The notes under the pieces were generated by a model, which was not told the DNA's origin, ran no database searches, and saw only the letters and a program-made list of their open reading frames with translations. This document shows, piece after piece, positions 4,088-41,699 of a stretch of DNA of 49,137 bases. Each line of letters starts with the position of its first letter. Positions within the stretch are counted from its first letter, which is position 1. Made by a program: the position numbers and the translations under genes. Source of the DNA: Bacteroidota bacterium (GTDB lineage Bacteria > Bacteroidota > Bacteroidia > AKYH767-A > 2013-40CM-41-45); NCBI GenBank assembly GCA_043742705.1, contig JAYTXY010000024.1, positions 1-49,137 on the forward strand, given 5' to 3'.

Positions 4088-4131
4088 GTGATACTTGATT
4101 TGACGACAAAGGTAAGAATTTGTACTTGGTG

Positions 4132-5025: not shown

Positions 5026-6270
5026 TTATTTCAATTCATCTAATGCTTTTGCTGCATTGGATTTGTATTCGCTGTTTCCCGCAGATAAATCCTGCAATAA
5101 TTTTTTGGCTTTTGAAATTTTATTTTCCTTAATATAAGCAAGTGACAAATACCATTTGGCGGCATCAGAAAATTTATTGGGCGTATTTTTTAAAACAAAT
5201 TCAAGTTCCTTGATGGCGATGCCATATTCATTGAGACTTAAATGAGAAACCCCGCTATAAAAAAGCGCTTCGTTATTCTGTGGCTCTTTCGTCAGTACTT
5301 CTTTAAAAACAGATGTTGCTGTCGGATAATTTTTTTCATCATAATATTTAATCCCAGATTTTATTAAACTGTCGGTGGGTGATTCGGAATTTTTAGAAGA
5401 CACTGTTGTTGAGAAAGCGGTCGCATTCAACTGTTTTTTTTCATCGCCCCGCGTGCGTTTGGAATCGATACTTTTAAAAGACCCTTCTCTTTGTGCTTCC
5501 GGAGCAGGAGTATTCGTTGAAACGCTATTGTCCGCTTTTGATTCATCGCGTTCTGATTTTTTATTCACTGCATCAAGATCCCGGGACGCTGATCCGGTGG
5601 CGACCGTTTCTTTTGATTCGTCATCTTTATCTTTTGCTGCCACAGAATTTTTTTTCTCCGCAAGCGTAAGATCCGATTGTGTTGGTGATGCGGCTGAACC
5701 GGAAATATTTTTTGTTACCGTAACCATTTGGTCGTTCACCGGAGTTTGTGATGGAGCCCCATTCTTTTCTTTTCCAGAAAACACTTGCTCCAATTGCCTT
5801 GCCGGGGCAACGACATTTTCTTCATCGTTTCTTTTCTCATTTGTTTCAACCGGAGCAACGGATGGTGCCGCAGGAGTCGTTGCAACGGTGTCACGATATG
5901 GTTTAAAGTTCTCGGTGAAAATCATTTCAGATTTTCGGATTGTGCGCAGGTAATAAATTCCTCCGCCAAACAGGGCAAACAATAAAAGCACAGCTGCAAT
6001 CCTGTAAAGAACAAATGAATTGGTAGTCTTTCCTCCTGAGCGAATTCTATTTTCTATTTGCTGATCGAGTCCGCGAAGAGCCTCTTTCGTCTGTTGCGGA
6101 GCGCGTGTTGACAACCCCTCAAAAGCATCGTGGCAGAAATCACATTCGAGCAAATGCTTTTCAACACGATGCTGATCCGAAGGATTTAGTTTTCCTTCAA
6201 GATACGCCAGCATCATTTCTTCCGAAATGCATCCTCCGTGATCCATTATGTTGTCGAACTTATTTGACAT
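5026..6270 (-). CDS. Membrane-spanning zinc-finger (zf-HC2) anti-sigma factor with a low-complexity linker and C-terminal TPR repeats
   Basis: The N-terminal HLLECDFCHDAF carries an H-x3-C-x2-C motif (H39, C43, C46; nt 6133-6156). A single TM helix follows (FVLYRIAAVLLLFALFGGGIYYL). A long S/T/D/E/K-rich region comes next, then a TPR-like C-terminus (YYDEKNYPTATSVFKEVL...ALFYSGVSHLSLNEYGIAIKELEFVL). It overlaps the sigma gene by 11 nt. Confidence 0.75.
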   Translation of the reverse strand: MSNKFDNIMDHGGCISEEMMLAYLEGKLNPSDQHRVEKHLLECDFCHDAFEGLSTRAPQQTKEALRGLDQQIENRIRSGGKTTNSFVLYRIAAVLLLFALFGGGIYYLRTIRKSEMIFTENFKPYRDTVATTPAAPSVAPVETNEKRNDEENVVAPARQLEQVFSGKEKNGAPSQTPVNDQMVTVTKNISGSAASPTQSDLTLAEKKNSVAAKDKDDESKETVATGSASRDLDAVNKKSERDESKADNSVSTNTPAPEAQREGSFKSIDSKRTRGDEKKQLNATAFSTTVSSKNSESPTDSLIKSGIKYYDEKNYPTATSVFKEVLTKEPQNNEALFYSGVSHLSLNEYGIAIKELEFVLKNTPNKFSDAAKWYLSLAYIKENKISKAKKLLQDLSAGNSEYKSNAAKALDELK

Positions 6271-6919
6271 TTTTTTTCTCCATCAATATTTTCAGGTTCC
6301 GTTTTCCGTTCTGAATAAAACTTTTCACCTGTAACATTCCGTAGCCCGTTAATTCCGAAACCTGTTGATATGATTTTTCCTCAAGATAAAACAATTCGAT
6401 ACACCTTCTTTGTTCTGTGTTTAATAAAGGAAGCGCCTTTTCAAGTTCTTGCAGTGCGGCTTCTTTTTCGTGGCTGTGATCTGGATGCAGGAGAGAATTC
6501 ATTTCCACAACCTCGAGTGAACTTTCGTGCTCGTCAAACGATTCGTGGTATTTCGATTTGTTTTTTCGAATCAGCATCAGGCAATGATTCTTCGAAACGG
6601 AGTGGAGCCACGATTTAAAATATTCAATGCTGTGCCTCTTTAAATCCGTCAACAGTTTCTCGAAAATCTGCATCACGGCATCTTTGCTGTCATCCTCGTC
6701 TCGCAGATATTTCAGACAAACTCCATAGACAAGGTGTTTGTAACGCTTGAATAAAATGCCAACAACAGATGCATCATTCGCTTCTTTGTAAAGAGCAATG
6801 AGTTGAGTGTCGTTGAGCAGATCTTTATCAGAATGAACTTTCAAGAGAGAATCGGTAGCTACAAGATTGTAATTGTTTTTGAAAGACCGAATGTGTTGTA
6901 AAAAGAATAGCCTTCTCAA
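6260..6919 (-). CDS. ECF (sigma-70 family group IV) RNA polymerase sigma factor
   Basis: Region 2 (LFKRYKHLVYGVCLKYLRDEDDSKDAVMQIFEKL) and region 4 HTH (LNTEQRRCIELFYLEEKSYQQVSELTGYGMLQVKSFIQNGKRNL) are recognisable. The track start at 6919 is a TTG inside a terminator-like hairpin. An in-frame TTG at 6844 (giving MKVHSDKDLLNDTQLIALY) may be the true start. Confidence 0.8.
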   Translation of the reverse strand: MRRLFFLQHIRSFKNNYNLVATDSLLKVHSDKDLLNDTQLIALYKEANDASVVGILFKRYKHLVYGVCLKYLRDEDDSKDAVMQIFEKLLTDLKRHSIEYFKSWLHSVSKNHCLMLIRKNKSKYHESFDEHESSLEVVEMNSLLHPDHSHEKEAALQELEKALPLLNTEQRRCIELFYLEEKSYQQVSELTGYGMLQVKSFIQNGKRNLKILMEKKNVK

Positions 6920-8175: not shown

Positions 8176-8913
8176 CTAGAGGCTCTTTGCTACTTCGTCC
8201 CAGTTCACCAAATTCCACCAGGCCGTTATATAATCTGCTCTTTTATTCTGATAGTTTAGATAATAGGCGTGTTCCCAAACATCTAGCGCTAAAATTGGCT
8301 TGCCCTTGAAATCAGAGACATCCATCAATGGATTATCCTGATTGGGGGTTGAACCAATTTGCAATTTTCCGTTGCTCTTGACAAGCCAGGCCCAACCACT
8401 TCCGAAACGCGTTTTGCCGGCATCACTAAACTGTTTTTTCATTTCGTCAAAACTTCCGAAGGAAGTATTTATCGCTTCGGCAACCTTTCCTGTTGGCGCC
8501 CCACCTCCGTTTGCTTTCATAAGTTTCCAGAAAAAAGAATGGTTCCAGTGTCCTCCTCCATTGTTTCGAATTGCAGTCGGATATTTGGAAACATTTTTCA
8601 TCAGATCGTCCAGCGAAACAGCAATCTTTCCCTCTTCACATGCTTTGTTCAGATTGGTAATATAGGCCTGGTGATGTTTCGTATGATGAATTTCCATCGT
8701 CATCTTATCAATGTGCGGCTCCAGCGCATCGTATGCATAAGGCAAAGCAGGAAGCGTAAACGCTGAACCTGAATCAGAGAAAGAATTTTCCACAATTACA
8801 CTTTCCGCGAACGAAGCATTTGATAAAACAGAATTAGCGGCTAATCCCGCCAAAGTAAGAAGAGCGCCTTTTTTTAAAAAGTCTCGCCTGCCGTTTTGTT
8901 CCTCAGATTCCAT
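8176..8913 (-). CDS. Fe/Mn-family superoxide dismutase with a twin-arginine (Tat) signal peptide
   Basis: SOD motifs [14 protein letters not shown] and DVWEHAYYL are present. The N-terminus [36 protein letters not shown] carries the RRxFLK Tat motif. I start at the ATG at 8913. The track start at 8934 is a TTG. Confidence 0.9.
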
Positions 8914-8959
8914 GGTTGTATTTTTTAGTATCAATAGTAAAATTAAACAATCCGTTTGA

Positions 8960-9967: not shown

Positions 9968-12900
9968 ATGAAATCACGCAACCTGATTTTCCTTTCGTTC
10001 ATTGTTCTGGCAGCTTCCGGAGCATTCATTTCTTTTCAACAGAAGAAGGGTAAGAAACCAACAAGTCAAACAAGTACGGTGACGCTTTCCGGAAGCTATC
10101 AGCAGCAATGGTCAAGGGTTGACTCCCTTACCCAAAAGGGGCTTAGTAAATCAGCGCTTGAACAGGTGATGAACATTTACAAAAAGGCGAAGGCGGAAAA
10201 CAATGCTCCGCAATTGGTGAAGGCGGTTATTCACCGCATGAAGCTTCAAAGTTACACCGAAGAAGATGCCATGAAAAAAATGATTGGTGATCTGAAGAAA
10301 GAAGCATCGTCTGCACGATTTCCTGCGCGACCGCTTTTGCATAGCATGCTTGCCGAAACCTATGTGAGATTTTACGCACAGAACAGATATCGCTTTTTGA
10401 ACAGAACAGAAACTGCGGATTACAAAAATGATGACATTAATACATGGGACTTAAAAAAGATTGTCAAAGAAACAATTCATGAATACGAGTTGTCAATGGT
10501 TGATGAAGACAGTTCGAAGCACGCCCAGGTGAATATTTACGATGACGTAATTCAAAAAGGAAATGCAGATGACGCAAGAAAATTCCGTCCGTCATTGTAT
10601 GATTTTGTTGCGCATCGCGCACTTGATTTTTTTGTGAATGAAGAATCCGGATTGACGGAGCCGGCAAACAAATTCGAAATCAATAACGCTTTTTATATGA
10701 GCAATGCTGATATTTTTCTAAACGTTGTTTTAAAAGCAGACGACTCATTATCATTGAAATTCAGGGCAACAAAATTTTTTCAGAATCTAATTGCTTTTCA
10801 CCGGAGAGATGCTCATCCGGGAGCATTGATTGATGTTAATCTTGAACGATTGAAGTTTGTTCACGACAATATAACTCTTCCAAACAAAGACTCGCTTTAT
10901 TTTGATGCACTGCAGGAAATGGAAAAACAGTATGCCGACTATCCTGGCTCTGTTGATGTGCTCTTTGAAATTGCCTCAATGTATTTCGAGTGGGGAAACC
11001 GTTATGCATTCGGAGAAAAACCGGAAGCAAAAATGCTGATTAAAAAAGCAAAAGAAGTTTGTGAAGCCGGGATTTCAAGATTTCCTTATTCACAAGGAGG
11101 GTTGAATTGCAAATCGCTGAAAAGCCGGATTGAAGAAAAGTCGATGGCATTTACTATTGAGCAGATCAATATTCCCGATCAACCGTTTCGCGCAAAGCTT
11201 GATTATAAAAACATTCGGAGAATTTATTTCCGCATAGCAAAGAACGATCGTGACGAAACAAATGAATACGAGGATTTGTACGGAGAAAAACTTACCAAAC
11301 ATTATGTAAAGCTTCCTGTTATCAAACAATGGAATGTTGACGTGGAAGATGACGGAGATTTTCAACAACATTCAACAGAGATAAAAATTCCGGAACTTCC
11401 TGTTGGGAACTATGTAATTCTTTCCGGATCTGATCCGGATTTCAGCTATGAAAAGAATGCAGTTGCCTACACCACCTGTTGGGTGTCAAACATCAGCTAT
11501 GTAACGCGAAGACGCCAGGATGGCGGATTTGATTTTTATCTGCTTCACCGTGAAACCGGTGAGCCGCTTGCAGATGTAACTGCGCAACTCTATGCACAGG
11601 AATACGATTACATTTTCAGAAAATACAAATACGTTAAGCTGGACGCATTCAAGACAAATGCAGACGGCTTTTTCTCCGTTGCCTCCGTTTCTGATTACAG
11701 GAATTTCGACATTGAATTTACGCGTGGAAAGGATCGCCTGTTTCTGAATGATAACTTTTATCAATACCGTAATAATTCAGATGTCAGGAAAACAAGAACG
11801 CAGACTTTTTTCTTTACAGACAGATCGATTTACCGTCCCGGACAAACAGTTTATTTCAAAGGCATCGTTCTTGAAACTGATGGAGAAAAGAATTCCATCA
11901 AAACCAAACAGGCAACCACTGTCACAATGTTCGATGTAAACGGACAAAAAGTTTCCGACCAGACGCTTACCACAAATGAATACGGAACTTTTGGCGGAAG
12001 CTTCACCGCTCCAATGGGTTTGTTGAATGGCACGATGAGAATCGGAAATGAAAGCGGTTCGATTTATTTTTCCGTGGAAGAATATAAGCGACCAAAATTT
12101 GAAGTCACGTTTGAACCGATCAAAGGTGTTTACCGTCTGAATGATAAAGTAAGTGTCAAAGGAAGGGCCACGGCATACTCCGGGGCAAACATTGACAATG
12201 CGGAGGTGAAATACAGTGTTGTGCGCACGGCAACGTTTCCATTCTGGAATTATTACTGGCGCGGATATCCGCCATCACCGCAAATGGTAATCACACATGG
12301 AACGACCGCGACAAACGATCAGGGAGAATTTTCTATCACCTTCGATGCAATTCCGGATAACGGCATCGATAAAGAAACCAACCCGATTTTTAATTTTAAA
12401 ATTTCTGCAGACGTGACGGATTTGAACGGAGAAACGCAAAGCGGATCACAAAACGTGAGCGTCAGTTACAATGCGCTGATGCTATCGGTGGCAATTCCAT
12501 CGGAGTTGAATAGAGAGTCCGCAACAGATTTTATGATCAATACGAAAAATTTATCGGGAGAATTTGTTTCCACGAAAGGAATGATTGCTATTGCTAAACT
12601 AAAAGAGCCGTCACGTATTTTCAGAAAAAGAAAATGGCAGAGACCGGAAAAGCAGACACTCAGCAAAGAAGAATATGAACGAACATTTCCGTACGATCTT
12701 TATGCAGACGAAGACGACCCCGATAAATGGGAAAATGAAAACACGGTGTATGGCTCCGGTTTCAATACAGAAAAAGATTCGCTGCTTCATCTCGCATCAA
12801 TCAAAGATTGGAAACAAGGAATCTACAAACTGGAAGCAACAACGAAAGATAAATATGGCAGCGATGTAAAGTTTGTAAAATATTTTACGCTCTTTTCTGA

Positions 12901-15900
12901 AAAGGAAAAACAGGCGCCCCTTAAAAGAACAGATTGGTTTTATGTGATAAAAGATAATGCTGAACCGGGAAACTCCGATCAGTTTCTCATAGGAACACGC
13001 GATCAAGATGTAAAAGTGCTTTATGAAGTGGAACAAAAGGGAGAAGTCATCAGCAAACAATGGTTGCTTCTGAATGATGAACAAAAACGGATCGATGTTC
13101 CCATACTTGAATCGTACCGGGGAAACATCGCTGTCCATTTCACATTTGTAAAGCACAACCGTGATTATCATTTCGATCACGTTCTCACCGTTCCATACAC
13201 AAACAAAGCATTGGATATTTCTTTCGAAACATTCCGAAGCAAATTGTATCCCGGACAAAAAGAGGAATGGAAAATAAAAATTCGCGGAAAGGCCGGGGAA
13301 AAAGTTGCGGCAGAAATGCTCGCTACGATGTATGATGCATCGCTTGATGCGTTTAAGCCGCACAATTGGATGTTCAGTATTTACAATAGCTATTATTCCA
13401 CGCTTAACCTTGAAGCATACCGTTCTTTTGGAATAGCAAACTCAAACATATTTTCTCATGAGTGGAATAACTATGCTCCGGAAAAATTCAGAACGTATGA
13501 TCAATTAAACTGGTTCGGATTTTCTGGGGATAACTACTATTACCGAAACAGCAGAACAGAAAGAGAAGATGTTGTTCTTGATATGGCAGCTCCAATGATG
13601 TCGCCAAAGCGCGCGGAAACAACAATTGTTGCCGGGAATACGAAGGGCGCGTTTGCGGAAGGAAAGCAAAGTTTCAAAAAAGATGGCGGAGCGGACAAAG
13701 ATGAAAATAATTTGGAATCTACTGGAGAAACGGGAAAGGAAAAACAAAACCTCTCAGGAATAAAGGGAAGAGCCAACTTTAATGAAACGGCATTTTTCTA
13801 TCCCCAGCTTTCAACAAACGACAGCGGTGAAGTGATTGTCTCATTCACGCTTCCGGAAGCATTGACGCGTTGGAAGATGATGGGATTTGCCCACACCGCT
13901 GATTTAAAATACGGAATGATTGAAAAGGAATTGGTGACTCAGAAAGAGTTGATGGTGATTCCAGATCCCCCACGATTCTTTCGCGAAGGAGATAAAATTT
14001 CATTTACAACAAAAATTTCGAATCTCTCAGACAGTTTATTATCCGGAACGACACAGTTGTTTTTATACGATGCGATTACAATGCAGCCGCTGAATATTTT
14101 TATTCCATCATCGAAAAATATAAAAGGAGAGGCAACATCTGTTTTATCATTCACCGCTTCAAAAGGACAAAGCGCTACTGCAGAATGGAATCTTAGTATT
14201 CCGGAAGGCGTAGGAGCAATTACATATAAGGTCGTAGCGAAAGCGGGGAATTACAGTGATGGTGAAGAGCAAACAATTCCTGTGTTAACTAATCGCATGT
14301 TGGTTACAGAAACAATGCCGCTGCCCGTGAGGGGCAATCAAAGCAAGGCGTTTGAGTTTATCAAACTTAAAAATTCCGGAGCATCAACGACTCTTCGCAA
14401 TCACAAACTCACCCTTGAGTTTACTTCCAACCCTGCATGGTATGCTGTGCAAGCATTGCCTTACATGATGGAGTTTCCATATGAATGTTCCGAGCAGGTG
14501 TTCTCGCGTTATTATGCAAATGCAATTGCATCGCACATCGCGAATTCAAATCCTAAAGTGAAAGCAGTCTTTGACAATTGGAAAAGCAGCAGCCCGGATG
14601 CATTTTTATCCAACCTCGAAAAAAATCAGGAGCTAAAATCACTGATGCTGGAAGAAACACCGTGGGTTCTTGATGCGAAGAATGAATCCGAAAGAAAGAA
14701 ACGAGTCGCACTGTTGTTTGATCTGAATAAAATGTCGAATGAATTGAACGGTGCATTGTTGAAGTTGCAGAAGAAGCAGGTTGCAAATGGCGCGTGGCCA
14801 TGGTTTGACGGTATGCCGGATGACCGTTACATCACGCAATACATCGTTGAGGGCTTCGGTCACCTGGATCATCTCGGAGTAAAAAATGTTCGGGGGAATG
14901 ATAAGGTTTGGGAGATGGTGAAACGCGCGGTGCAATATCTTGATGCAAGAATCAAGGATGATTACAATCACCTTGTTGAAATAAAAGTTGATCTTTCAAA
15001 GAATCAGCTAAGCGCAATTCAAATCCAGTATTTGTATGCAAGAAGTTATTTCAAAGACATTGCGGTTTCATCAGAATCAAAAAAGGCGTTCGACTTTTAC
15101 AAAGACCAAAGCAAAAAATTCTGGTTAAACAATGGTGAATACCTCGAAGGAATGATTGCACTGGAGCTGAATCGTTTTGATGACGGTAACACAATTTCAA
15201 CAGACATTTTGAAATCTTTGAAAGAGAATTCTCAATATAGCGAAGAGTTGGGAATGTATTGGAAGAATAATACAGGCGGATATTATTGGATGCAGGCACC
15301 AATCGAAACACAGGCATTGATGATTGAAGCGTTTGATGAAATTACAAATGATCAGAAGGCCGTTGATGATATGAAAGTGTGGTTGCTTAAGCAAAAGCAA
15401 ACACAGGATTGGAAAACTACCAAAGCCACAGCAGAAGCATGTTATTCGTTGTTGCTAAGAGGAACAAACTGGCTGACAGAACAGGCGCCTGTTGAAATAA
15501 CCATCGGCAACAAAAAAATTAATGCAACAGAAATGCCGGACTTAAAAGTTGAAGCGGGAACAGGATATTTTAAAACATCCTGGAGCGGTGGCGATATAAA
15601 ACCCGAAATGGCAAACGTGAAAGTCGAAAACAAAAACAATGTCGTTGCCTGGGGCGCGCTTTACTGGCAGTATTTCGAACAGCTTGATAAAATAACTCCG
15701 CACCCAACGCCTATTAATCTGAAGAAGGAATTGTTTCTTGAAAAGAACTCTTCAACAGGACCGATCATTACTCCGATAACGACACAAACAAACCTGAAGC
15801 CGGGTGATCGCATCAAAGTTCGAATTGAATTAAGAGTTGACCGTGACATGGAATATGTAATGATGAAAGACATGCGTGCTGCCGGTTGTGAGCCGGAAAA

Positions 15901-16132
15901 TGTGTTGTCACAATTCAAATGGCAGGATGAACTCGGTTACTACGAAAGCACACGCGATGCTTCCACAAATTTCTTCTTTTCATATCTTCCGAAAGGAACA
16001 TATGTGTTCGAATATCCGTTGCGTGTTTCTCACAAAGGTGATTTCTCGAATGGCATTACTGAAATCCAGTGTATGTATGCTCCTGAATTTGCAGCGCACT
16101 CCGAAGGGATAAGGCTTTCGGTTAAGCAATAG
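9968..16132 (+). CDS. Alpha-2-macroglobulin family protein (large bacterial A2M with a thioester motif)
   Basis: 2054 aa with an N-terminal signal or anchor (LIFLSFIVLAASGAFISF). The MG-domain body follows. A charged, low-complexity bait-like segment lies at about nt 13550-13775 (...KRAETTIVAGNTKGAFAEGKQSFKKDGGADKDENNLESTGETGKEKQNL...). It sits directly before NFNETAFFYPQL. The thioester motif is PYECSEQ (CSEQ at nt 14486-14497, Cys 1507). Confidence 0.9.
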   Translation: MKSRNLIFLSFIVLAASGAFISFQQKKGKKPTSQTSTVTLSGSYQQQWSRVDSLTQKGLSKSALEQVMNIYKKAKAENNAPQLVKAVIHRMKLQSYTEEDAMKKMIGDLKKEASSARFPARPLLHSMLAETYVRFYAQNRYRFLNRTETADYKNDDINTWDLKKIVKETIHEYELSMVDEDSSKHAQVNIYDDVIQKGNADDARKFRPSLYDFVAHRALDFFVNEESGLTEPANKFEINNAFYMSNADIFLNVVLKADDSLSLKFRATKFFQNLIAFHRRDAHPGALIDVNLERLKFVHDNITLPNKDSLYFDALQEMEKQYADYPGSVDVLFEIASMYFEWGNRYAFGEKPEAKMLIKKAKEVCEAGISRFPYSQGGLNCKSLKSRIEEKSMAFTIEQINIPDQPFRAKLDYKNIRRIYFRIAKNDRDETNEYEDLYGEKLTKHYVKLPVIKQWNVDVEDDGDFQQHSTEIKIPELPVGNYVILSGSDPDFSYEKNAVAYTTCWVSNISYVTRRRQDGGFDFYLLHRETGEPLADVTAQLYAQEYDYIFRKYKYVKLDAFKTNADGFFSVASVSDYRNFDIEFTRGKDRLFLNDNFYQYRNNSDVRKTRTQTFFFTDRSIYRPGQTVYFKGIVLETDGEKNSIKTKQATTVTMFDVNGQKVSDQTLTTNEYGTFGGSFTAPMGLLNGTMRIGNESGSIYFSVEEYKRPKFEVTFEPIKGVYRLNDKVSVKGRATAYSGANIDNAEVKYSVVRTATFPFWNYYWRGYPPSPQMVITHGTTATNDQGEFSITFDAIPDNGIDKETNPIFNFKISADVTDLNGETQSGSQNVSVSYNALMLSVAIPSELNRESATDFMINTKNLSGEFVSTKGMIAIAKLKEPSRIFRKRKWQRPEKQTLSKEEYERTFPYDLYADEDDPDKWENENTVYGSGFNTEKDSLLHLASIKDWKQGIYKLEATTKDKYGSDVKFVKYFTLFSEKEKQAPLKRTDWFYVIKDNAEPGNSDQFLIGTRDQDVKVLYEVEQKGEVISKQWLLLNDEQKRIDVPILESYRGNIAVHFTFVKHNRDYHFDHVLTVPYTNKALDISFETFRSKLYPGQKEEWKIKIRGKAGEKVAAEMLATMYDASLDAFKPHNWMFSIYNSYYSTLNLEAYRSFGIANSNIFSHEWNNYAPEKFRTYDQLNWFGFSGDNYYYRNSRTEREDVVLDMAAPMMSPKRAETTIVAGNTKGAFAEGKQSFKKDGGADKDENNLESTGETGKEKQNLSGIKGRANFNETAFFYPQLSTNDSGEVIVSFTLPEALTRWKMMGFAHTADLKYGMIEKELVTQKELMVIPDPPRFFREGDKISFTTKISNLSDSLLSGTTQLFLYDAITMQPLNIFIPSSKNIKGEATSVLSFTASKGQSATAEWNLSIPEGVGAITYKVVAKAGNYSDGEEQTIPVLTNRMLVTETMPLPVRGNQSKAFEFIKLKNSGASTTLRNHKLTLEFTSNPAWYAVQALPYMMEFPYECSEQVFSRYYANAIASHIANSNPKVKAVFDNWKSSSPDAFLSNLEKNQELKSLMLEETPWVLDAKNESERKKRVALLFDLNKMSNELNGALLKLQKKQVANGAWPWFDGMPDDRYITQYIVEGFGHLDHLGVKNVRGNDKVWEMVKRAVQYLDARIKDDYNHLVEIKVDLSKNQLSAIQIQYLYARSYFKDIAVSSESKKAFDFYKDQSKKFWLNNGEYLEGMIALELNRFDDGNTISTDILKSLKENSQYSEELGMYWKNNTGGYYWMQAPIETQALMIEAFDEITNDQKAVDDMKVWLLKQKQTQDWKTTKATAEACYSLLLRGTNWLTEQAPVEITIGNKKINATEMPDLKVEAGTGYFKTSWSGGDIKPEMANVKVENKNNVVAWGALYWQYFEQLDKITPHPTPINLKKELFLEKNSSTGPIITPITTQTNLKPGDRIKVRIELRVDRDMEYVMMKDMRAAGCEPENVLSQFKWQDELGYYESTRDASTNFFFSYLPKGTYVFEYPLRVSHKGDFSNGITEIQCMYAPEFAAHSEGIRLSVKQ

Positions 16133-35453: not shown

Positions 35454-38360
35454 TTATTGAATCACTAGTTTCTGATACGAAGTTTTGTCTTTTGACGAAA
35501 CATGAATTGTATACAATCCTTTTGCAAATTTACTTACAGAAAATTCGCGGCTGTAATTTCCTCCGGTATTTTCTATTACATCAGAAGAAACAACGCGACC
35601 CACCGCATCAATGAATTCAACTTTTGAAGTTGTCGCATCCGCCAGGTCAAATGAAACGGTTACGTTTTCACCTGCAGGATTTGGATATACATGGAAATGA
35701 TTATCTGCAGAGATGTTGTTCACACCTGTCGGAATAATAATGATTGCCTGAACAGGAACACGCTCGCTAACACAAACGGTTGGAGGAACCACAATATTCC
35801 AATCATAAAAATAATAATAGGCCGAAGAACTTGTCGCGGAGCCTGTCCAGCCATTCGTAATGGTCACCTTTCCGCTCTGAATGTAAGGATAACCAACTCC
35901 TGAATTGCTTCTTTGCATAAAAGGAGAAGCCGCTCCGAAATTGGTATTGTCTAACGTGCCATTTGTAGTGATGCGATATCCGGTTCCGACAGCCAGCGAA
36001 AAATTTAATGGAACTACCGTTGTATCAGCAGAGAGGTTCACAACTAAAGAACGGATCACCGTTCCGACCGAATTCAGAATCTGAATTTCACGTGTACCAT
36101 AATGCGTTGATTCGGTATAAATTTTTACGGAAGCAAGCATACATGCAGAGGTAACATTAAAATCAAGGCCACCATTCACTCCATTGTTATACAAATTTCC
36201 ACCGGAATGATACGGCTGTCCTGCAAATTCACTTGACCCTCCATAGCTGGTTGCGTTTTCGGCCCAGTAAGTAGTGGTATTAAACAATACAGGTGTTGTA
36301 AATGAAAGCCCCGTGTACTGCAGTGTTCCTCCGGTTTGCTGATCGTACCAGGAAACAAAATTTCCTGTTGCATTTAAAGTAACAGCAGCGGGACCTGGCG
36401 ATGTTACATCGGGTGCAAAAGGAGGAGGATCTGGAAGCACATTTACTTCCGTGGAATCGGAAGTGAACGATACGCATAAACCCTGAATGGTTACTGCATA
36501 TTTTCCGGAAGCAGTCGCCACGATAGCTTGCGTGGTTTCTCCGGAATTCCAGGCATACGATGCTGCCTGTGTTGCGGTGAGCGTTACGCTACCTCCGCCA
36601 CAAAACTCAAGATGACCCGAAGTATTAATAGTTGGAGTTTCATCAGGATTTAATTCTACATCTACAGATGGAGAAATATTGGAACAACCATTTGCAGCGA
36701 TTACCGATACATTATAAAATCCTGTCGAGGATACAATAATTGATGAAGATGTTTCACCGGTTGACCAGTTGTAGGATGAAAACCCTCCAGTGGCGAGCGG
36801 GAGAGTTTGTCCTGTGCACAATCCAAATGGTCCAGGAATAACGTTTCCAGTAAGCGTACAACCTGCTTCAACAGCGGTTACAAACTGATCAGCTGCGAGG
36901 TTTGCGAAGCGGGTTTGTAAATGCGAAGGCCAGTCAATGTGCGCAGAGTCAACAGTCGTATGTTGTCCTAACCCAAAATGCAATTGCATGGAGTTGGATG
37001 TTCCGTAACTTTCACCTGCACGTACTTCACGAATTTGTTTTCCCCACGGACCGTAAAGTGTTACACGGGCACCAATGGCCCCTAAGTTACTCTGTGTCCC
37101 TTTTAAATCAAACGTGATAAAATGATAGGAGTTTTTCGTTGTGTTCATATAAAGCGCATCTGCGGTAGAACCGCTCGGAGTATTGTAACCGCCACCATAG
37201 GAGGTGATGACATCAATCTTCCCATCGTGATTCAAATCTCCAGTTGCAAAAGATAAGAAGGTTGTTCCTCCGAAAGGATTCGCAACTTCTGTGAACGTAT
37301 TATTACCATTGTTGTGAAACAGTGAAGTGCCCGAGTGATTGTAGCCGGATACCAATAAATCCAAATACCCGTCATTATCAAAATCTTCAAGAACAGATTC
37401 CAGTGATGAATAAGACAATGAAAAATTCGTGCTTGCTGTAATATCAGTATAGTGCCCTGTTCCATCATTGAGTAATACGAGACTTACATCACTGTGATTC
37501 GTCTCAATCAAATCTAAATCTCCATCGTTGTCTATGTCTCCAAAGCTGCTTGTCCATGTTTCTTTAAAATCGGTTGTTTCAATGCCGTACGATTGCGCCA
37601 TTTCTGTATAAACATTGCTTCCGTTGTTTACGAATAAGCGGTCTCTTCTGCGTTGATCTGTATTGCTGGTAACACCTAAGCGACAATGAGCAATGAAAAG
37701 GTCAAGGTCGCCATCGTTGTCAAAGTCCGTCCATACGCTTCCGTAGTTTCCTGAATCGTAAGGATCACCGCCACTGTATGTCATGCCCGGATTAATGTTT
37801 GTATTGATCAAAGTAGTTGTCTGTGTCAAAGTTCCGGTTCCGTCATTTTTATAAACTTTTGCATAGTCATTATCATCACATACAAAAAGATCGGCCCATC
37901 CATCATTATTAAAATCCCCGAACGTTACGTTCTGAACCAGATAACTTCCGGTTAATGTTGTGGTAGCGGCAGCAATCGTGCTTCCTGTCCATGATAGTTT
38001 GACAATATACATTGCACTGCCGGTACCGGTCGCCACATCTTTCCAGCCATTGTGGTCAACATCGGCTGCGGCCATTCCCCAGACTCTTGAAGTTCCTGAG
38101 ATATTGCCCAGGTTGTAGTGTGTGAAAGTTCCGTTCTTGTTTTGCAAGTCAACCATCAAGGTTGTTGACTGATCCATTTTAACAACATCATCAAGCCCAT
38201 CGTTGTTTACATCCACAATAGTCATTGCGCAACCACTATGCGTAGCTGTCGAAAGCGCGCTTGAACTTGTGAACGTAAATTGTGCCAGGCTTTGAAATGC
38301 AACGAAAAAAGAAAATAGTAAAATAAAAAACAGTGAGCGATTCAAGGTAGATGTCTTCAT
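35454..38360 (-). CDS. FG-GAP/VCBS-repeat beta-propeller protein with an ASPIC/UnbV domain, Ig-like repeats and a T9SS C-terminal sorting domain (CRTAC1-like)
   Basis: At least seven calcium-binding FG-GAP loops are present (VNNDGLDDV, VDHNGWKDV, FNNDGWADLFV, FDNDGDLDLFI, IDNDGDLDLI, FDNDGYLDLLV, LNHDGKIDVI). The UnbV-type segment is GARVTLYGPWGKQIREVRAGESYGTSNSMQLHFGLG. There are repeated Cys-bracketed modules (YNWSTGETSSSIIV / YAWNSGETTQAIV). The C-terminal tail is HVYPNPAGENVTVSF...LYTIHVSSKDKTSYQKLVIQ. I start at the ATG at 38360, which gives the signal peptide MKTSTLNRSLFFILLFSFFVAFQSLAQ. The track start at 38426 is a TTG. Confidence 0.85.
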   Translation of the reverse strand: MKTSTLNRSLFFILLFSFFVAFQSLAQFTFTSSSALSTATHSGCAMTIVDVNNDGLDDVVKMDQSTTLMVDLQNKNGTFTHYNLGNISGTSRVWGMAAADVDHNGWKDVATGTGSAMYIVKLSWTGSTIAAATTTLTGSYLVQNVTFGDFNNDGWADLFVCDDNDYAKVYKNDGTGTLTQTTTLINTNINPGMTYSGGDPYDSGNYGSVWTDFDNDGDLDLFIAHCRLGVTSNTDQRRRDRLFVNNGSNVYTEMAQSYGIETTDFKETWTSSFGDIDNDGDLDLIETNHSDVSLVLLNDGTGHYTDITASTNFSLSYSSLESVLEDFDNDGYLDLLVSGYNHSGTSLFHNNGNNTFTEVANPFGGTTFLSFATGDLNHDGKIDVITSYGGGYNTPSGSTADALYMNTTKNSYHFITFDLKGTQSNLGAIGARVTLYGPWGKQIREVRAGESYGTSNSMQLHFGLGQHTTVDSAHIDWPSHLQTRFANLAADQFVTAVEAGCTLTGNVIPGPFGLCTGQTLPLATGGFSSYNWSTGETSSSIIVSSTGFYNVSVIAANGCSNISPSVDVELNPDETPTINTSGHLEFCGGGSVTLTATQAASYAWNSGETTQAIVATASGKYAVTIQGLCVSFTSDSTEVNVLPDPPPFAPDVTSPGPAAVTLNATGNFVSWYDQQTGGTLQYTGLSFTTPVLFNTTTYWAENATSYGGSSEFAGQPYHSGGNLYNNGVNGGLDFNVTSACMLASVKIYTESTHYGTREIQILNSVGTVIRSLVVNLSADTTVVPLNFSLAVGTGYRITTNGTLDNTNFGAASPFMQRSNSGVGYPYIQSGKVTITNGWTGSATSSSAYYYFYDWNIVVPPTVCVSERVPVQAIIIIPTGVNNISADNHFHVYPNPAGENVTVSFDLADATTSKVEFIDAVGRVVSSDVIENTGGNYSREFSVSKFAKGLYTIHVSSKDKTSYQKLVIQ

Positions 38361-38438: not shown

Positions 38439-40388
38439 TTATTGTAGCCTGATAATTTTTCGGTAGTGTATTTTCCCTTCAGATAAAATCTTCATCAAGT
38501 AAACAGATTGTTTGGACGGAAGTGCAACAGTACAGGAGTTGATGATTCCGTTAAAATTCATCTCATTCACCATTCGGCCTTGTAAATCATAAACATCGAT
38601 GTGTTTTATTCCATGTCCCGGGCGGGTTTTAACAAATACTTTTCCATCTGTTGAAAGGGTCGGATATACTTCAATTTCATTTTCACTTAACAGGTTTTGA
38701 TCGGTTGACAATACGACCATGTTGATGATGCTATCAGAAGCAATCCGCACAGGCGTTTGATCCGCATTATTAAACATGGTTCGGAATGAATCAATCTCCG
38801 GGCTGCTGTAAGTCATCATTTCATCCACCCATTTAGGCGGAACGGATTGATAATACATGTTTGCATGGACACTTACATTTCCAGTGACCAGCACGAGAGG
38901 TACATGATAATGAATGAGGTCCACTCCGGACCCTTCAACAGCATTTATCTTGTTGAAATCGTTATCGGCCAATGCATCATTTGAAATGCTTACAGTATCA
39001 TATACAGAAGATGTTGTAAGAAAACCGGCAGGAGGAATACGATCATCTTTGAGAAGAATCGCACCACGCTCAAGCACTGAAGTAAAATGACCGAATACAT
39101 CACCCATCACCAATTCATAAATCTGTGGTACATCCGATTGGTTGATCGCATCATGATGCGGTTCGAAGGAAGGGTTTTCACCAACCACATGGTAATCATT
39201 TGTGAAGGTTCCTGATTTGAAAACGGTATCCCCTGTTACATCAGTCACAACAAACTCAACAACTGCCCTGCGCGAAGGATAGCCGGAAGGGAATTTATGT
39301 CCGGCTTTGTTTTGAACCCGTACGTGAAAGTATGCGGTGTCATTTGCAACACTATCTGCAAGCAAACTGAAATGAATGGATCGTTCCTGCAGAAGTGCTT
39401 TTGTATCAGCAATGGTGGAATCAAACTGCCAGTCTGCGGCATCTGCCCCAAGTAATGCTTTATTATTTTTAATCAGGTTGACCATAAACGAATTTGCTCC
39501 TACAAATGTGTGTTGATTGAATGGAAAACGCGCCGGCAATGTGTTGAAACCATTTGCAATTACGATTGCATCTTCGAGGTGAGGCATGTGGCAGGTCTGG
39601 CAGGTAATGGTATCAGCAGGATATCGGGAGTTGAGATATTCGTGATAGGTTGCCTGCTCCGTAAATGTTCCTCCCGTGTAAACACCGAATGTATCAGTCG
39701 ACTGTGTGATCAACGTATGACACGCTGAACAAACACGTGCCTGGTTCATGTGATCGCTGTACGTGGGAGTATAACCCTCGTACAGTTGCATTGGGCCAAC
39801 ATCAGGAAGTGTGAAAGGACCATACACATTTTTGCTTGTGTCATAGGGTATAATTCCTGAATACGTACTTCCTACTGATGTTGCAATCGTATGACAGCTT
39901 TCGCAGGCAACTCCATCCTGTCCTAACGAATCAAACGCAAGATTCGCCAATCCGTAATGTGCCTCACCGTGAAACTGGGAAGTGTATTTGCCCATCGGTG
40001 CATGGCAGGAAGTGCATTTATCCGGCAACTCGGCAGCGTGAGACGGGTCGACTAAAATCTCATGACTTACTTTTGCTCGCCAGAACGGATCGCGTGCGCT
40101 GTTTGCCATCATCGTACTTTGCCAATGATCAAAAAGATTTACCGAGTTGCCGTTTTCATCTACGTTGGCAAGGTGAGTTAAATCGTATCCGTGACATTCT
40201 TTGCAATGAGAAGACGGTAGAAAATATTCACCGGGAGCAATGGGAGACATGATCTGGTTTTGAAATGCCCTTATTTCTTGTGAAGTGTGAAAAGAAGTCT
40301 TCACCTCATATCCACGAGGAATTAAGAATCCCATCAGGAGGATAAAAGAAAAAATAAGACTACTAACCAGAAGTAATTGTCGATGCAT
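38439..40388 (-). CDS. Pentaheme c-type cytochrome with a C-terminal non-heme domain and a T9SS-like sorting tail
   Basis: Five CXXCH motifs were verified at nucleotide level: CKECH 40191-40205, CTSCH 40002-40016, CESCH 39891-39905, CSACH 39717-39731, CQTCH 39588-39602. The N-terminus is a hydrophobic signal (LLLVSSLIFSFILLMGFLI). The last ~80 aa (IEVYPTLSTDGKVFVK...VYLMKILSEGKIHYRKIIRLQ) resemble the sorting tail of the neighbouring gene. Confidence 0.8.
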   Translation of the reverse strand: MHRQLLLVSSLIFSFILLMGFLIPRGYEVKTSFHTSQEIRAFQNQIMSPIAPGEYFLPSSHCKECHGYDLTHLANVDENGNSVNLFDHWQSTMMANSARDPFWRAKVSHEILVDPSHAAELPDKCTSCHAPMGKYTSQFHGEAHYGLANLAFDSLGQDGVACESCHTIATSVGSTYSGIIPYDTSKNVYGPFTLPDVGPMQLYEGYTPTYSDHMNQARVCSACHTLITQSTDTFGVYTGGTFTEQATYHEYLNSRYPADTITCQTCHMPHLEDAIVIANGFNTLPARFPFNQHTFVGANSFMVNLIKNNKALLGADAADWQFDSTIADTKALLQERSIHFSLLADSVANDTAYFHVRVQNKAGHKFPSGYPSRRAVVEFVVTDVTGDTVFKSGTFTNDYHVVGENPSFEPHHDAINQSDVPQIYELVMGDVFGHFTSVLERGAILLKDDRIPPAGFLTTSSVYDTVSISNDALADNDFNKINAVEGSGVDLIHYHVPLVLVTGNVSVHANMYYQSVPPKWVDEMMTYSSPEIDSFRTMFNNADQTPVRIASDSIINMVVLSTDQNLLSENEIEVYPTLSTDGKVFVKTRPGHGIKHIDVYDLQGRMVNEMNFNGIINSCTVALPSKQSVYLMKILSEGKIHYRKIIRLQ

Positions 40389-40496: not shown

Positions 40497-41699
40497 TCAC
40501 CTGCTTACAAGCTTATCCACGAATTCTGTAAATTCTGCTTTCCATTTTTCGAAATGCTCCCCGGTTGCCGGTCCTGAAAAGCCAGTATGAATTTTTCTGA
40601 CTTTATGATCCCCGTCAAGTACGATGGTCGTTGGAAATGAAAGAATGTTGTTCAACATCGGTAATGCTTTTACCCGAAGTCTCTGATCGTTGCTTCCTGC
40701 GTATAACAGTGTGTAATCGATGTCGTATCTTTTTTTCAATCGCTGAAGATTTTTTTTCGCAGTTGGAAATTCATTGATGCGCTCAAAGTCGAGCGCGATA
40801 ATTTCAACGCCTTTCTCTTTGTACTTTTTGTAAAACGGAGCGAGGAATGCTGTTTCATCCATGCAGTTCGGACACCATGTTCCCATAATTTGTACAATCA
40901 CAATTTTGTTTTGAAATTTTTTATCACTCAGCGAAACAAGGTTGCTATCAGTATCGGGAAAAGTAAAGCTGATTTTATCATAACCGGATTTTAGAAACGT
41001 GAGCGAGTCAGCATCAGGAAGAGTTGCATTTTCATTTCGTTCAGCTTTCCACGTGTCATGCCAATGTACTCCGGAATAATAGTGTCCGGTGATGGTTCCA
41101 TCTGTAGTATAATTTCCGGTGAACAAATAAAGATGCGAACCATCGAAGCAGAACAGTTTAAAAGTGCTTCCGGTTACGATTCCTTCGAGGTAACGGTAAT
41201 CTCCTATTGAAGTGAGAAATGTTCCGGCGAGTAAATGATCGTGTTGTTTAAATTCTCCGACAGAGTGATTGAGGGGAGGTGCGTCTCCCGCAAACACAAC
41301 ATCCCATCTTCCTGTCATGTTGAATGTTGGAGGAGTGAGCGAATCTTTAAAGCGAAACGATTCATGTGTTGCAACAAAAGGAATTACATTTTTATCTCTG
41401 CGCGCGTGATTCAAAAAGTTCCCTGAAATTTTATCGCCTGAAATTTTTCCTCTGAACTCAGAATCAAAAACAGGCATTTTAATAAAAACAGAATCTCCGG
41501 AATAATTTATTTCATCAACAAAAATTTTTTCTTCAGCATTGATGATGTCCATTGTCTTTTCTTTCACGTCCATCATGAACGGCAATTCTGTACTGTCGTT
41601 TAATTGCAATGCGTATCGCCAGAATCCTTTTTGCATCACCGTTTGTGATTTTGCAATGCAAGCGATCATCATGAGTAAAGCAAGTAAGCGGTATTTCAT
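40497..41699 (-). CDS. TlpA-family thiol-disulfide oxidoreductase with a large N-terminal beta-rich extension
   Basis: The thioredoxin-fold active site is IMGTWCPNCMDE (WCxxC) in the C-terminal ~150 aa. The N-terminus is a signal or lipobox-like sequence (LLALLMMIACIAKSQ). The ~230-aa N-terminal region is of the type commonly fused to Bacteroidota redoxins. Confidence 0.8.
   Translation of the reverse strand: MKYRLLALLMMIACIAKSQTVMQKGFWRYALQLNDSTELPFMMDVKEKTMDIINAEEKIFVDEINYSGDSVFIKMPVFDSEFRGKISGDKISGNFLNHARRDKNVIPFVATHESFRFKDSLTPPTFNMTGRWDVVFAGDAPPLNHSVGEFKQHDHLLAGTFLTSIGDYRYLEGIVTGSTFKLFCFDGSHLYLFTGNYTTDGTITGHYYSGVHWHDTWKAERNENATLPDADSLTFLKSGYDKISFTFPDTDSNLVSLSDKKFQNKIVIVQIMGTWCPNCMDETAFLAPFYKKYKEKGVEIIALDFERINEFPTAKKNLQRLKKRYDIDYTLLYAGSNDQRLRVKALPMLNNILSFPTTIVLDGDHKVRKIHTGFSGPATGEHFEKWKAEFTEFVDKLVSR

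Follow-up and report, generated by a model that had tools for sequence, protein, structure and literature searches.

A pentaheme c-type cytochrome with a type IX secretion sorting domain and a linked CRTAC1-like propeller protein in Bacteroidota

Multiheme cytochromes reach the outside of diderm cells by several routes, which include type II-secreted lipoproteins, porin-cytochrome complexes and filament assembly. In c-type cytochromes, heme is attached covalently and the protein folds in the periplasm. The MtrC, OmcA and MtrF proteins of Shewanella carry ten hemes in four domains and are type II-exported lipoproteins that dock on the MtrAB conduit. A different architecture, the pentaheme "cap plus Ig-like stem", is found in a superfamily that includes cytochrome c552 of Thermochromatium tepidum (PDB 5ZE8) and ExtKL/MccSep of Geobacter. 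The low-potential cytochrome c552, from a purple sulfur bacterium, is soluble and has about 385-435 residues; its N-terminal helical domain holds five CXXCH motifs and is followed by an Ig-like domain bearing a (G/P)H..P.G.P.R loop. A relation of 5ZE8 to an archaeal cytochrome nanowire has been suggested (PMC11976967).

MccSep of Geobacter sulfurreducens (GSU2937-2936, PDB 9WT8, family model NF040886) is the only member of the superfamily for which a function has been demonstrated. It is a periplasmic, homotetrameric polysulfide reductase with a five-heme cap and stem, whose catalysis needs Sec325 together with Cys239, the latter ligating heme 2. Its adjacent heme irons lie 9.5-11.8 Å apart (bioRxiv 10.1101/2025.11.18.688581). 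The "large pentaheme cytochromes" (lPHC), which include GSU2801 and lPHCtX of cable bacteria, have been described as a larger version of the pentaheme domain plus Ig-like domain, sometimes fused to other domains (PMC11976967). They are predicted to be periplasmic and none has been reported with a type IX secretion system (T9SS) tail or an FG-GAP/ASPIC partner; a literature search found no functional report on GSU2801.

The cytochrome analysed here is encoded in a 49,137-nucleotide stretch of Bacteroidota DNA, which is referred to as the window, and its features are collected in Table 1. The protein is ordered as a hydrophobic N-terminus, a heme region, an Ig-like beta domain of ~260 residues and a C-terminal domain of 78 residues. 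The N-terminal signal proposed in an earlier note on this DNA is present as MHRQLLLVSSLIFSFILLMGFLI, a hydrophobic segment that reads as signal-like, is conserved in kind among 39 close relatives and aligns with their own signal-like N-termini; a clear cleavage site is not visible. The database gene call is a protein of 631 residues that starts 18 codons downstream, and from which the hydrophobic N-terminus would be lost.

Table 1. Features of the cytochrome gene and its partner (window positions; residues refer to the cytochrome)
Feature	Residues	Positions	Strand	Basis or remark
Whole gene: pentaheme c-type cytochrome with T9SS tail	649 aa	38439..40388	-	Stop codon 38439-38441
N-terminal hydrophobic, signal-like segment	1-25	40314..40388	-	Sequence reading and alignment with relatives' N-termini; no lipobox Cys
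Clade-specific N-terminal arm	26-55	40224..40313	-	Carries invariant F33-H34; low model confidence
Alpha-helical pentaheme "cap"	56-299	39492..40223	-	AF2 mean pLDDT 89.9; Foldseek 5ZE8; profiles 5ZE8 and 9WT8
Heme motif 1, CKECH	C62-H66	40191..40205	-	Nucleotide check and alignment
Heme motif 2, CTSCH	C125-H129	40002..40016	-	Nucleotide check and alignment
Heme motif 3, CESCH	C162-H166	39891..39905	-	Nucleotide check and alignment
Heme motif 4, CSACH	C220-H224	39717..39731	-	Nucleotide check and alignment
Heme motif 5, CQTCH	C263-H267	39588..39602	-	Nucleotide check and alignment
Helical linker and Ig-like beta-sandwich "stem"	300-560	38709..39491	-	Alignment, profiles, AF2; invariant H364 and H411
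Signature loop GHKFPSGYPSRR	363-374	39267..39302	-	Aligned with MccSep loop GHSIPDGU bearing Sec325; Y370 at the Sec position
T9SS type A C-terminal sorting domain	572-649	38442..38675	-	TIGR04183, profile, Foldseek; 11-residue linker before
Partner gene		35454..38360	-	Likely ATG 38360; longest ORF from TTG 38426; Pfam, NCBIfam

More than 2,800 homologues of the 649-residue protein were found in a protein collection. A scan of species-representative genomes returned 595 relatives among the 600 matched stretches listed, that is, at least 595, and the best 80 genome loci with a relative are all from Bacteroidota (80/80). By their submitters' names, the carriers include Chitinophagales, Saprospiraceae and Flavobacteriales, with many freshwater, soil and sludge lineages. 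Conservation was read from two alignments, one of the 39 close relatives and one of a more diverse set of 41 relatives, and cluster-level counts were taken over 121 full-length representatives, comprising 22 that bear the C-terminal domain (CTD) and 99 that are tail-less.

The five CXXCH motifs reported in the earlier note are present at the nucleotide level, where 0.009 would be expected by chance from the protein's own composition. When their conservation was checked, all five were invariant in 39/39 close relatives and in 41/41 relatives down to 28% identity, and exactly five motifs occur in 118 of the 121 cluster representatives. The cytochrome has 11 cysteines, ten inside the motifs and one in the tail. 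As all five motifs are CXXCH and none is CXXCK, and as there is no PF02335 match, the pentaheme nitrite reductase NrfA was rejected as a family; NrfA entries in the PDB profile search are short heme-motif matches only, with E values of 2e-4 and weaker.

The view that the cytochrome resembles no known type proved to be wrong. A single-sequence search of the PDB gave no match, and only profiles reached 5ZE8 (E = 1.7e-13, the best sequence-profile match) and 9WT8 (E = 3.6e-9). Consistent with this, 5ZE8 is also the best fold match in Foldseek (E = 3.8e-17, TMt 0.68), and the loop GHKFPSGYPSRR aligns with PHAMPTGAPFRN of 5ZE8 and with GHSIPDGUPT of 9WT8. By profile and predicted fold, the cytochrome is a member of the superfamily that holds c552 and ExtKL/MccSep. 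The diversity of the alignment matters for the model: AF2 run from the 39 close relatives left the heme domain at pLDDT <50 and a fold search with that model gave mostly generic Ig/FN3 matches, whereas the diverse 41-sequence alignment raised the pLDDT to the value in Table 1. The stem beta sandwich is modelled at high confidence.

Several differences separate the cytochrome from its characterised relatives. Compared with c552, to which it is about 16% identical, it has a larger cap and stem of about 500 residues, and c552 has neither the sorting tail nor the Phe-His arm found here. A core of about 500 residues, which occurs in many phyla, fits the lPHC as these are described. Relatives are fused to PQQ-type GSDH propellers and to PKD, Calx-beta, dockerin and Big_9 domains, and one (P0205) ends in a tail that reads as GlyGly-CTERM-like. 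Such fusions and the GlyGly-CTERM-like tail support an extracytoplasmic electron-relay role of the module in general.

The segment with HKFPSGYPSRR, to which the earlier note drew attention, was confirmed, and no other loop of the cytochrome is as conserved in either alignment. Here, the likeness to MccSep raises the question of an extracellular enzyme, in which heme 2 and the conserved GHKFPSGYPSRR loop (K365, Y370, R373, R374) together would make up an active site that binds anions and reduces or oxidises a small molecule, for example sulfite, polysulfide, a nitrogen oxyanion or peroxide, with electrons delivered by the remaining four hemes in the manner of MccSep, MccA and NrfA. In MccSep, the aligned loop bears the catalytic Sec325 beside heme 2; K365, R373 and R374 are kept throughout the family; and in a study of cable bacteria, PHC proteins were counted as potential catalysts that have a five-coordinate heme (PMC11976967). 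However, the Sec325 position holds Y, F, I or H across the family, and an equivalent of Cys239 is not present, there being no conserved Cys beyond CXXCH and F-x-E-Q in the aligned region. NF040886 gives a partial match in 39/39 close relatives, and on the cytochrome itself it scores 27.3 bits over residues 347-392 only, far below its cut-off of 250. With neither a catalytic Sec/Cys at 325 nor Cys239, and with that score, membership of the MccSep polysulfide reductase family was rejected.

The candidate ligands bear on the same question. Outside the motifs, H293, H364 and H411 are found in 41/41 relatives, M200 in 39/41 and H213 in 37/41, and H34 is clade-specific. Judged from the alignments, these conserved His and Met residues suffice for six-coordination of all five hemes, which argues against a vacant catalytic heme. 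They also alter the picture of the stem: the domain of ~300 residues described earlier as non-heme does exist, but it is not independent of the hemes because H293, H364 and H411 probably supply ligands. Sulfur genes lie near a minority of relatives: an operon in locus L085 holds MBL-rhodanese, TauE and the cytochrome, a metallo-beta-lactamase gene adjoins a relative in L081, and one relative is fused to TauE and another to metallo-beta-lactamase. The MBL-rhodanese/TauE link occurs in only 2/86 loci of tail-less relatives and in none of the T9SS clade, so a sulfur role was rejected as the main explanation and is kept as a minority lead. Any extracellular reductase would, in addition, still require an electron donor. 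On balance, the enzyme is unlikely.

The C-terminal tail sets the cytochrome apart from c552. When the last 78 residues, which the earlier note had taken for a T9SS tail, were searched against CTD models, TIGR04183 was passed (27.0 bits, cut-off 23) and Pfam PF18962 was below its cut-off (16.9 bits, cut-off 27). TIGR04183 matches 37/39 close relatives, with a best E of 5.7e-11, and a profile search matches the NucA CTD (8GLK_D) with E = 0.0023. The AF2 model predicts a seven-strand beta sandwich, with strands in residues 572-647 at pLDDT of about 88-94; between the sandwich and the core lies a short linker of low confidence. The modelled tail superposes, at TM ~0.8, on three substrate CTDs solved inside SprA translocon complexes; in Foldseek it matches the seven-strand CTDs of RemA and RemZ of Flavobacterium johnsoniae (8GL6_D, 8GL8_D) with TMt 0.81-0.83 and an rmsd of about 2 Å. 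NucA is from the same species. HBP35 of Porphyromonas gingivalis is also among the fold matches; it binds heme non-covalently, unlike a c-type cytochrome. No c-type cytochrome was found among described T9SS cargo in the literature on T9SS with multiheme or c-type cytochromes.

These matches bear on whether the tail is instead a beta sandwich that arose by chance or is vestigial, in which case the cytochrome would remain in the periplasm, as do c552 and MccSep. The PF18962 score and the periplasmic location of the characterised relatives would fit such a protein, as would the weak pairwise similarity of the tail to the CTD of the neighbouring gene product (E = 0.1). Against this stand the TIGR04183 scores and solved-CTD superpositions, the confinement of the tail to a Bacteroidota-type clade (22/121 representatives), its attachment through a short, low-confidence linker and the strong CTD of the linked partner. 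A purely periplasmic cytochrome is therefore highly improbable. On sequence grounds the tail is a genuine T9SS type A sorting domain; as such, crossing of the outer membrane is the expected fate of the cytochrome, and its export is well supported by sequence and model. T9SS component genes were not found within the window.

The conserved pairing with the partner gene is the strongest functional clue at this locus and was missed in the earlier note, which had recognised the next gene as T9SS cargo, in agreement with the match of its CTD to sorting-domain models. The product of this gene combines a signal peptide and an FG-GAP propeller of seven repeats with UnbV/ASPIC and Ig-like domains, a domain of ~200 residues (700-900) that has no assignment and a T9SS type A CTD, and it matches CRTAC1 (9ETN) with E = 2e-6. 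The two genes are separated by 78 nt, in which no terminator is predicted. A sigma-70 promoter scan was at background (18 found, 16 expected), the sigma-70 consensus being ill-suited to Bacteroidota. In the T9SS clade, the partner lies directly downstream of the cytochrome and on the same strand at 54 of the 64 loci with enough flank, and within 8 kb at 60/64, a count that includes convergent and divergent arrangements in Saprospiraceae. Beside tail-less relatives it was found at 0/86 loci, nor was it present in six individually inspected loci.

Apart from the propeller gene, no conserved neighbour was found in the 80 loci. The upstream gene for a TlpA/ResA-like thioredoxin, a possible cytochrome-maturation helper, was rejected as part of the module because it is absent at all 80 related loci. 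A recognisable redox cofactor site was not found in the partner, and a literature search found nothing on the function of bacterial UnbV/ASPIC proteins.

The neighbourhood also bears on a third alternative, that the cytochrome sits on the cell surface as the terminal point at which electrons leave or enter in respiratory extracellular electron transfer, the role of MtrC/OmcA in Shewanella. Here, a conduit whose genes lie elsewhere would bring electrons from the periplasm, the cytochrome would hand them on to Fe(III)/Mn(IV) minerals, humic substances or partner cells, and the propeller would be an adhesin. The cytochrome shares with MtrC, OmcA and MtrF the mixing of heme and beta domains in an exported multiheme c-type protein, as judged by its CTD and fold, and in places its sequence weakly resembles MtrC domain II/IV and OmcA/MtrC models: PF22113 (MtrC domain II/IV) gives 29.9 bits against a cut-off of 30, and TIGR03507 matches 18/39 close relatives. 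In addition, tail-less relatives lie directly downstream of a cytochrome c-outer-membrane beta-barrel fusion at 5/86 loci, and this shows that members of the family can be connected to the outer membrane. Among activated-sludge MAGs, a survey reported many predicted extracellular multiheme proteins in Bacteroidota (PMC11495043), and the suggested nanowire relation of 5ZE8 points the same way.

Against respiratory transfer, however, the window holds no porin-cytochrome conduit or any other cytochrome, and at the 80 loci the gene is not linked to a conduit, a quinol dehydrogenase or a periplasmic cytochrome. The Chitinophagales, Saprospiraceae and Flavobacteriales, as the submitters name the carrier genomes, are mostly aerobic heterotrophs, which likewise counts against it. 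The statement that the cytochrome is unlike the decaheme Mtr/Omc types holds at the level of fold, since no Mtr-family structure is among the Foldseek matches of the model, and needs qualifying for the weak local sequence similarity. With five hemes rather than ten, no lipobox Cys, PF22113 under its cut-off and no fold match, membership of the MtrC/OmcA decaheme family was rejected; a T9SS tail and the lack of a nearby conduit gene are further differences. We consider a respiratory outlet of the Mtr kind quite unlikely. With no conduit across the outer membrane in view, surface display and extracellular electron transfer of the classical kind are inferences only.

The reading we prefer, with a probability of roughly 0.55, is that the cytochrome and the propeller form a two-protein extracellular redox module, in which a c552/ExtKL "PHC" cytochrome acquired a T9SS tail in one Bacteroidota clade. 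The cytochrome would be exported by Sec to the periplasm, where its hemes would be attached covalently and the protein would fold. The T9SS translocon would then recognise the folded CTD and carry the cytochrome across the outer membrane, a step with strong sequence and fold support. Outside the cell, it would work with the FG-GAP/ASPIC (CRTAC1-like) propeller protein, presumably co-transcribed and co-exported with it: a relay of tightly spaced hemes, most or all of them six-coordinate, would carry the electrons, and the propeller/Ig protein would give substrate or surface binding, or an unrecognised redox site.

The N-terminal arm may contribute to this module. Its H34 is invariant among the close relatives (alignment A1), and an aromatic-His motif is present in the arm of 16/22 CTD-bearing representatives compared with 4/99 tail-less ones; in the AF2 model, residues 23-34 and 44-53 of this region are at pLDDT <50. 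The Phe-His arm might close a heme site, or might join subunits as in cytochrome filaments.

Some points count against the two-protein module. The closest characterised relatives are periplasmic and one of them, MccSep, is an enzyme and not a wire; the PF18962 model of the CTD is below threshold; the partner lacks a recognisable cofactor site, with no bacterial ASPIC function in the literature searched; an electron route across the outer membrane is seen neither in the window nor among conserved neighbours; and one of the hemes may be open and catalytic.

The wider proposal, which is possible but tentative, is that environmental Bacteroidota carry an unrecognised two-protein system, a T9SS-secreted pentaheme cytochrome with a T9SS-secreted CRTAC1-like propeller, for moving electrons beyond the outer membrane. 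By analogy with the fungal cytochrome-containing dehydrogenases that drive LPMOs, the pair could power an extracellular oxidative enzyme, or it could serve the reduction or oxidation of minerals and humic matter. If true, a T9SS-routed holo-cytochrome would add a further route by which multiheme cytochromes leave the cell, in a phylum that has hardly been studied for redox activity outside the cell. Nor is the module rare, given the number of genome stretches that carry a relative and the thousands of relatives in the protein collection. The conserved pairing provides a first functional handle on bacterial CRTAC1/ASPIC proteins and, for one branch of the pentaheme superfamily, a hypothesis that can be tested. 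Were the pair to move electrons extracellularly, abundant heterotrophic Bacteroidota would have to be re-examined for their part in the cycling of carbon, iron, manganese and humic matter.

The cytochrome gene (table) encodes a 649-residue protein, to which all residue numbers refer. Each of the five CXXCH motifs claimed in the earlier note (residues 62, 125, 162, 220 and 263) was verified at the nucleotide level; given how much Cys and His the protein contains, 0.009 would be expected by chance. The motifs hold 10 of the 11 cysteines. The conservation among orthologues on which the note had made its claim depend holds, with 5/5 motifs invariant in 39 relatives of 53–74% identity and in 41 relatives with identity down to 28%. 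Among the 121 full-length proteins that represent 50%-identity clusters, 118 carry exactly five motifs. A hydrophobic N-terminus without a lipobox cysteine aligns with the signal-like N-termini of relatives. The public gene call on this contig begins at Met19 (631 residues) and drops this segment; we consider the 649-residue start, which relatives back, to be the correct one.

The last ~78 residues match the NCBIfam model of the T9SS type A sorting domain, TIGR04183, at 27.0 bits (cut-off 23). The Pfam model PF18962 scores 16.9 bits, below its cut-off of 27, so that the proposed HMM check was positive for the first model only. TIGR04183 is matched by 37 of the 39 relatives (best E = 5.7e-11), and the family profile matches the C-terminal sorting domain (CTD) of NucA, a T9SS substrate from Flavobacterium, in its translocon-bound structure (8GLK_D; E = 0.0023). 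Further support came from a high-confidence AlphaFold2 model of the cytochrome (mean pLDDT 89.9, pTM 0.84). Here, the tail forms a seven-strand sandwich after a short low-confidence linker; its superposition on the SprA-bound CTDs of RemA and RemZ gives TMt 0.81–0.83 and an rmsd of about 2 A. In a direct pairwise comparison, the tail shows weak similarity to the CTD encoded by the neighbouring gene (E = 0.1). T9SS CTDs are usually this divergent, and identification of the tail thus rests on profile and fold. Several relatives already carry the NCBI name 'T9SS type A sorting domain-containing protein'. On the profile matches and predicted fold, we take the sorting domain to be real, as the note had proposed.

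As to cytochrome type, Pfam gives sub-threshold heme-motif matches only, among them one to MtrC/MtrF domain II/IV that reaches 29.9 bits (cut-off 30), and NCBIfam gives a short match to the ExtKL selenoprotein model (residues 347–392). The suggested search of multiheme families was productive: a profile of diverse relatives finds c552 of Thermochromatium tepidum, a low-potential pentaheme cytochrome (5ZE8, E = 1.7e-13), and the Geobacter multiheme selenoprotein MccSep/ExtKL (9WT8, E = 3.6e-9). In addition, 5ZE8 is by far the best fold match of the AlphaFold2 model (E = 3.8e-17, TMt 0.68). No Mtr or Omc structure is among its fold matches, and the claimed dissimilarity to decaheme Mtr/Omc types therefore stands for the fold, with the near-threshold MtrC/MtrF match as a qualification. 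A cable-bacteria study placed c552, ExtKL, GSU2801 and larger variants in a 'PHC family', with no function assigned to c552 (PMC11976967). MccSep, a periplasmic polysulfide reductase, is described as a 'mushroom' in which an alpha-helical cap with five hemes sits on an Ig-like stem. The irons of adjacent hemes are 9.5–11.8 A apart; four hemes have bis-His ligation, and Cys239 ligates heme 2 beside the stem-loop Sec325 (bioRxiv 10.1101/2025.11.18.688581).

The cytochrome follows the cap and stem plan but has a larger core of about 500 residues. The loop GHKFPSGYPSRR, more conserved than any other, aligns with the MccSep segment GHSIPDGU, but Tyr370 occupies the Sec position. As cysteines beyond the heme motifs are not conserved in the family alignment either, the cytochrome is assigned, from sequence and model, to the c552/ExtKL superfamily and not to the MccSep enzyme family. 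The cytochrome may be an enzyme acting at heme 2, but the MccSep catalytic residues are absent. A minority sulfur link among relatives was noted as a lead. Outside the motifs, H293, H364 and H411 are conserved in 41/41 relatives, M200 in 39/41 and H213 in 37/41, with H34 conserved additionally within the close clade. With these candidate ligands, each of the five hemes could be six-coordinate, a state more in keeping with electron transfer than with catalysis. H34 belongs to an N-terminal arm (residues 26–55) with an invariant Phe-His (F33-H34 here); this aromatic-His motif occurs in 16/22 tailed versus 4/99 tail-less representatives. The arm, modelled at low confidence by AlphaFold2, could provide the sixth ligand of a heme or a contact between subunits.

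The partner gene starts 78 nt after the cytochrome gene, with no terminator predicted in the gap. Its product, a CRTAC1-like protein of ~970 residues, has a signal peptide, seven FG-GAP repeats, UnbV/ASPIC and Ig-like domains, an unassigned ~200-residue region and a T9SS CTD. That CTD is strong (PF18962 49 bits, TIGR04183 41 bits), bearing out the earlier view of the next gene's product as T9SS cargo. The propeller matches human CRTAC1 (9ETN, E = 2e-6), and the partner alignment contains calcium-loop motifs and disulfide-type cysteines and no redox-cofactor motif. Of the related Bacteroidota loci, 64 extend at least 3.2 kb downstream; the partner is directly downstream on the same strand in 54 of these and within 8 kb in 60. 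In Saprospiraceae MAGs (L063, L067, L068, L073, L074, L079) it is convergent or divergent, not co-oriented, and paralogues sometimes lie to both sides of the cytochrome. Among the best 80 loci, the partner is the only conserved neighbour; it is missing from 86 loci of tail-less relatives and from six loci inspected singly. Directly upstream of the cytochrome lies a gene for a 400-residue protein with an unassigned ~230-residue N-terminal domain and a C-terminal TlpA/ResA-like thioredoxin fold (Redoxin, AhpC/TSA). ResA-type proteins assist cytochrome c maturation. This gene was rejected as a conserved neighbour, being absent from all best 80 related loci.

An exhaustive search of cluster representatives found 2,631 relatives (E <= 0.001), of which 518 reach E <= 1e-30; most align solely over residues ~50–553. 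The tail HMM matches 22 of the 121 full-length representatives. Relatives that lack the tail are 540–620 residues long, occur in Chloroflexota, Acidobacteriota and further groups, and are annotated as 'hypothetical protein' or 'multiheme c-type cytochrome'. A relative is encoded in at least 595 stretches of species-representative genomes (595 among the 600 listed). The best 80 of these loci are Bacteroidota MAGs, counting L035 and L044. These two are titled Bifidobacteriaceae or Bifidobacterium, but at 49–51% identity their sequences are closely related to the other 78 loci, all Bacteroidota; the titles are probably taxonomic mislabels of bins.

In other lineages, the pentaheme module also occurs behind a PQQ-type glucose/sorbosone dehydrogenase propeller in three proteins (P0205, P0217, P0177), one of which adds an F5/8 type C (discoidin) domain and an apparent GlyGly-CTERM-like tail. 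The end of P0205 that looks like this sorting signal is glycine-rich, hydrophobic and basic, and P0189 and P0217 carry many Cys/Asp-rich repeats. Further fusions of the module are to PKD, Calx-beta, Big_9, dockerin, metallo-beta-lactamase or TauE domains. These architectures suggest that it often serves as an electron-transfer unit on extracytoplasmic proteins.

Coordinates of the features discussed, in the window or in loci of relatives
Feature	Sequence	Coordinates	Strand
Cytochrome gene	window	38439-40388	-
N-terminal segment dropped by the public gene call	window	40335-40388	-
N-terminal arm	window	40224-40313	-
Partner gene	window	35454-38360	-
TlpA/ResA-like gene	window	40497-41699	-
Metallo-beta-lactamase+rhodanese gene	window	2690-4168	-
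TauE sulfite-exporter gene	window	4132-4932	-
ECF-type sigma factor gene, then TPR-protein gene	window	5026-6919	-
Fe/Mn superoxide dismutase gene	window	8176-8934	-
Alpha-2-macroglobulin gene	window	9968-16132	+
Sulfur-gene pair and tail-less relative	L085	4605-8761
Cytochrome c-barrel fusion	L141	6657-7808
Cytochrome c-barrel fusion	L152	2499-3731
Cytochrome c-barrel fusion	L161	6190-7323
Cytochrome c-barrel fusion	L157	1-669
Cytochrome c-barrel fusion	L159	3-443

Several side observations were made. In the window, 34 kb from the cytochrome, a metallo-beta-lactamase+rhodanese gene, putatively of the persulfide dioxygenase type, overlaps a TauE gene. The same pair directly precedes a tail-less relative in one operon in L085; such sulfur-gene links are rare (2/86 tail-less-relative loci). 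In five metagenome loci, the gene directly upstream of a tail-less relative encodes a ~380–410-residue fusion of class I cytochrome c and a Phenol_MetA_deg outer-membrane beta-barrel. This fusion, noted as a further lead, brings Cyc2 to mind and may be a cytochrome-porin. The window also encodes a 2,054-residue bacterial alpha-2-macroglobulin (MG2, A2M and bMG10 domains) and a 252-residue superoxide dismutase whose Pfam domains begin at residue 59; the latter may carry an export signal and hence be periplasmic or secreted. The sole CXXCH in the window outside the cytochrome, in a 414-residue TPR protein encoded after an ECF-type sigma factor gene, is probably incidental.

Both building blocks were already known, and the tail was already flagged by automatic annotation. 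A secretome survey predicted many extracellular multiheme proteins in Bacteroidota MAGs (PMC11495043). In the literature searched, no description was found of a c-type cytochrome as T9SS cargo, of a cytochrome–ASPIC protein pairing or of a function for this cytochrome branch. Respiratory extracellular electron transfer in the classical sense is a possibility, but no path by which electrons could cross the outer membrane is visible. The remainder of the window holds housekeeping genes and none for the T9SS, for cytochrome maturation or for a conduit; it has no further multiheme ORF. Sequence and model evidence lends good support to a holo-pentaheme cytochrome in the c552/ExtKL superfamily that the T9SS exports and that is genetically coupled to a CRTAC1-like protein, likewise exported. 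The two proteins would act jointly beyond the outer membrane, where the cytochrome would relay electrons.
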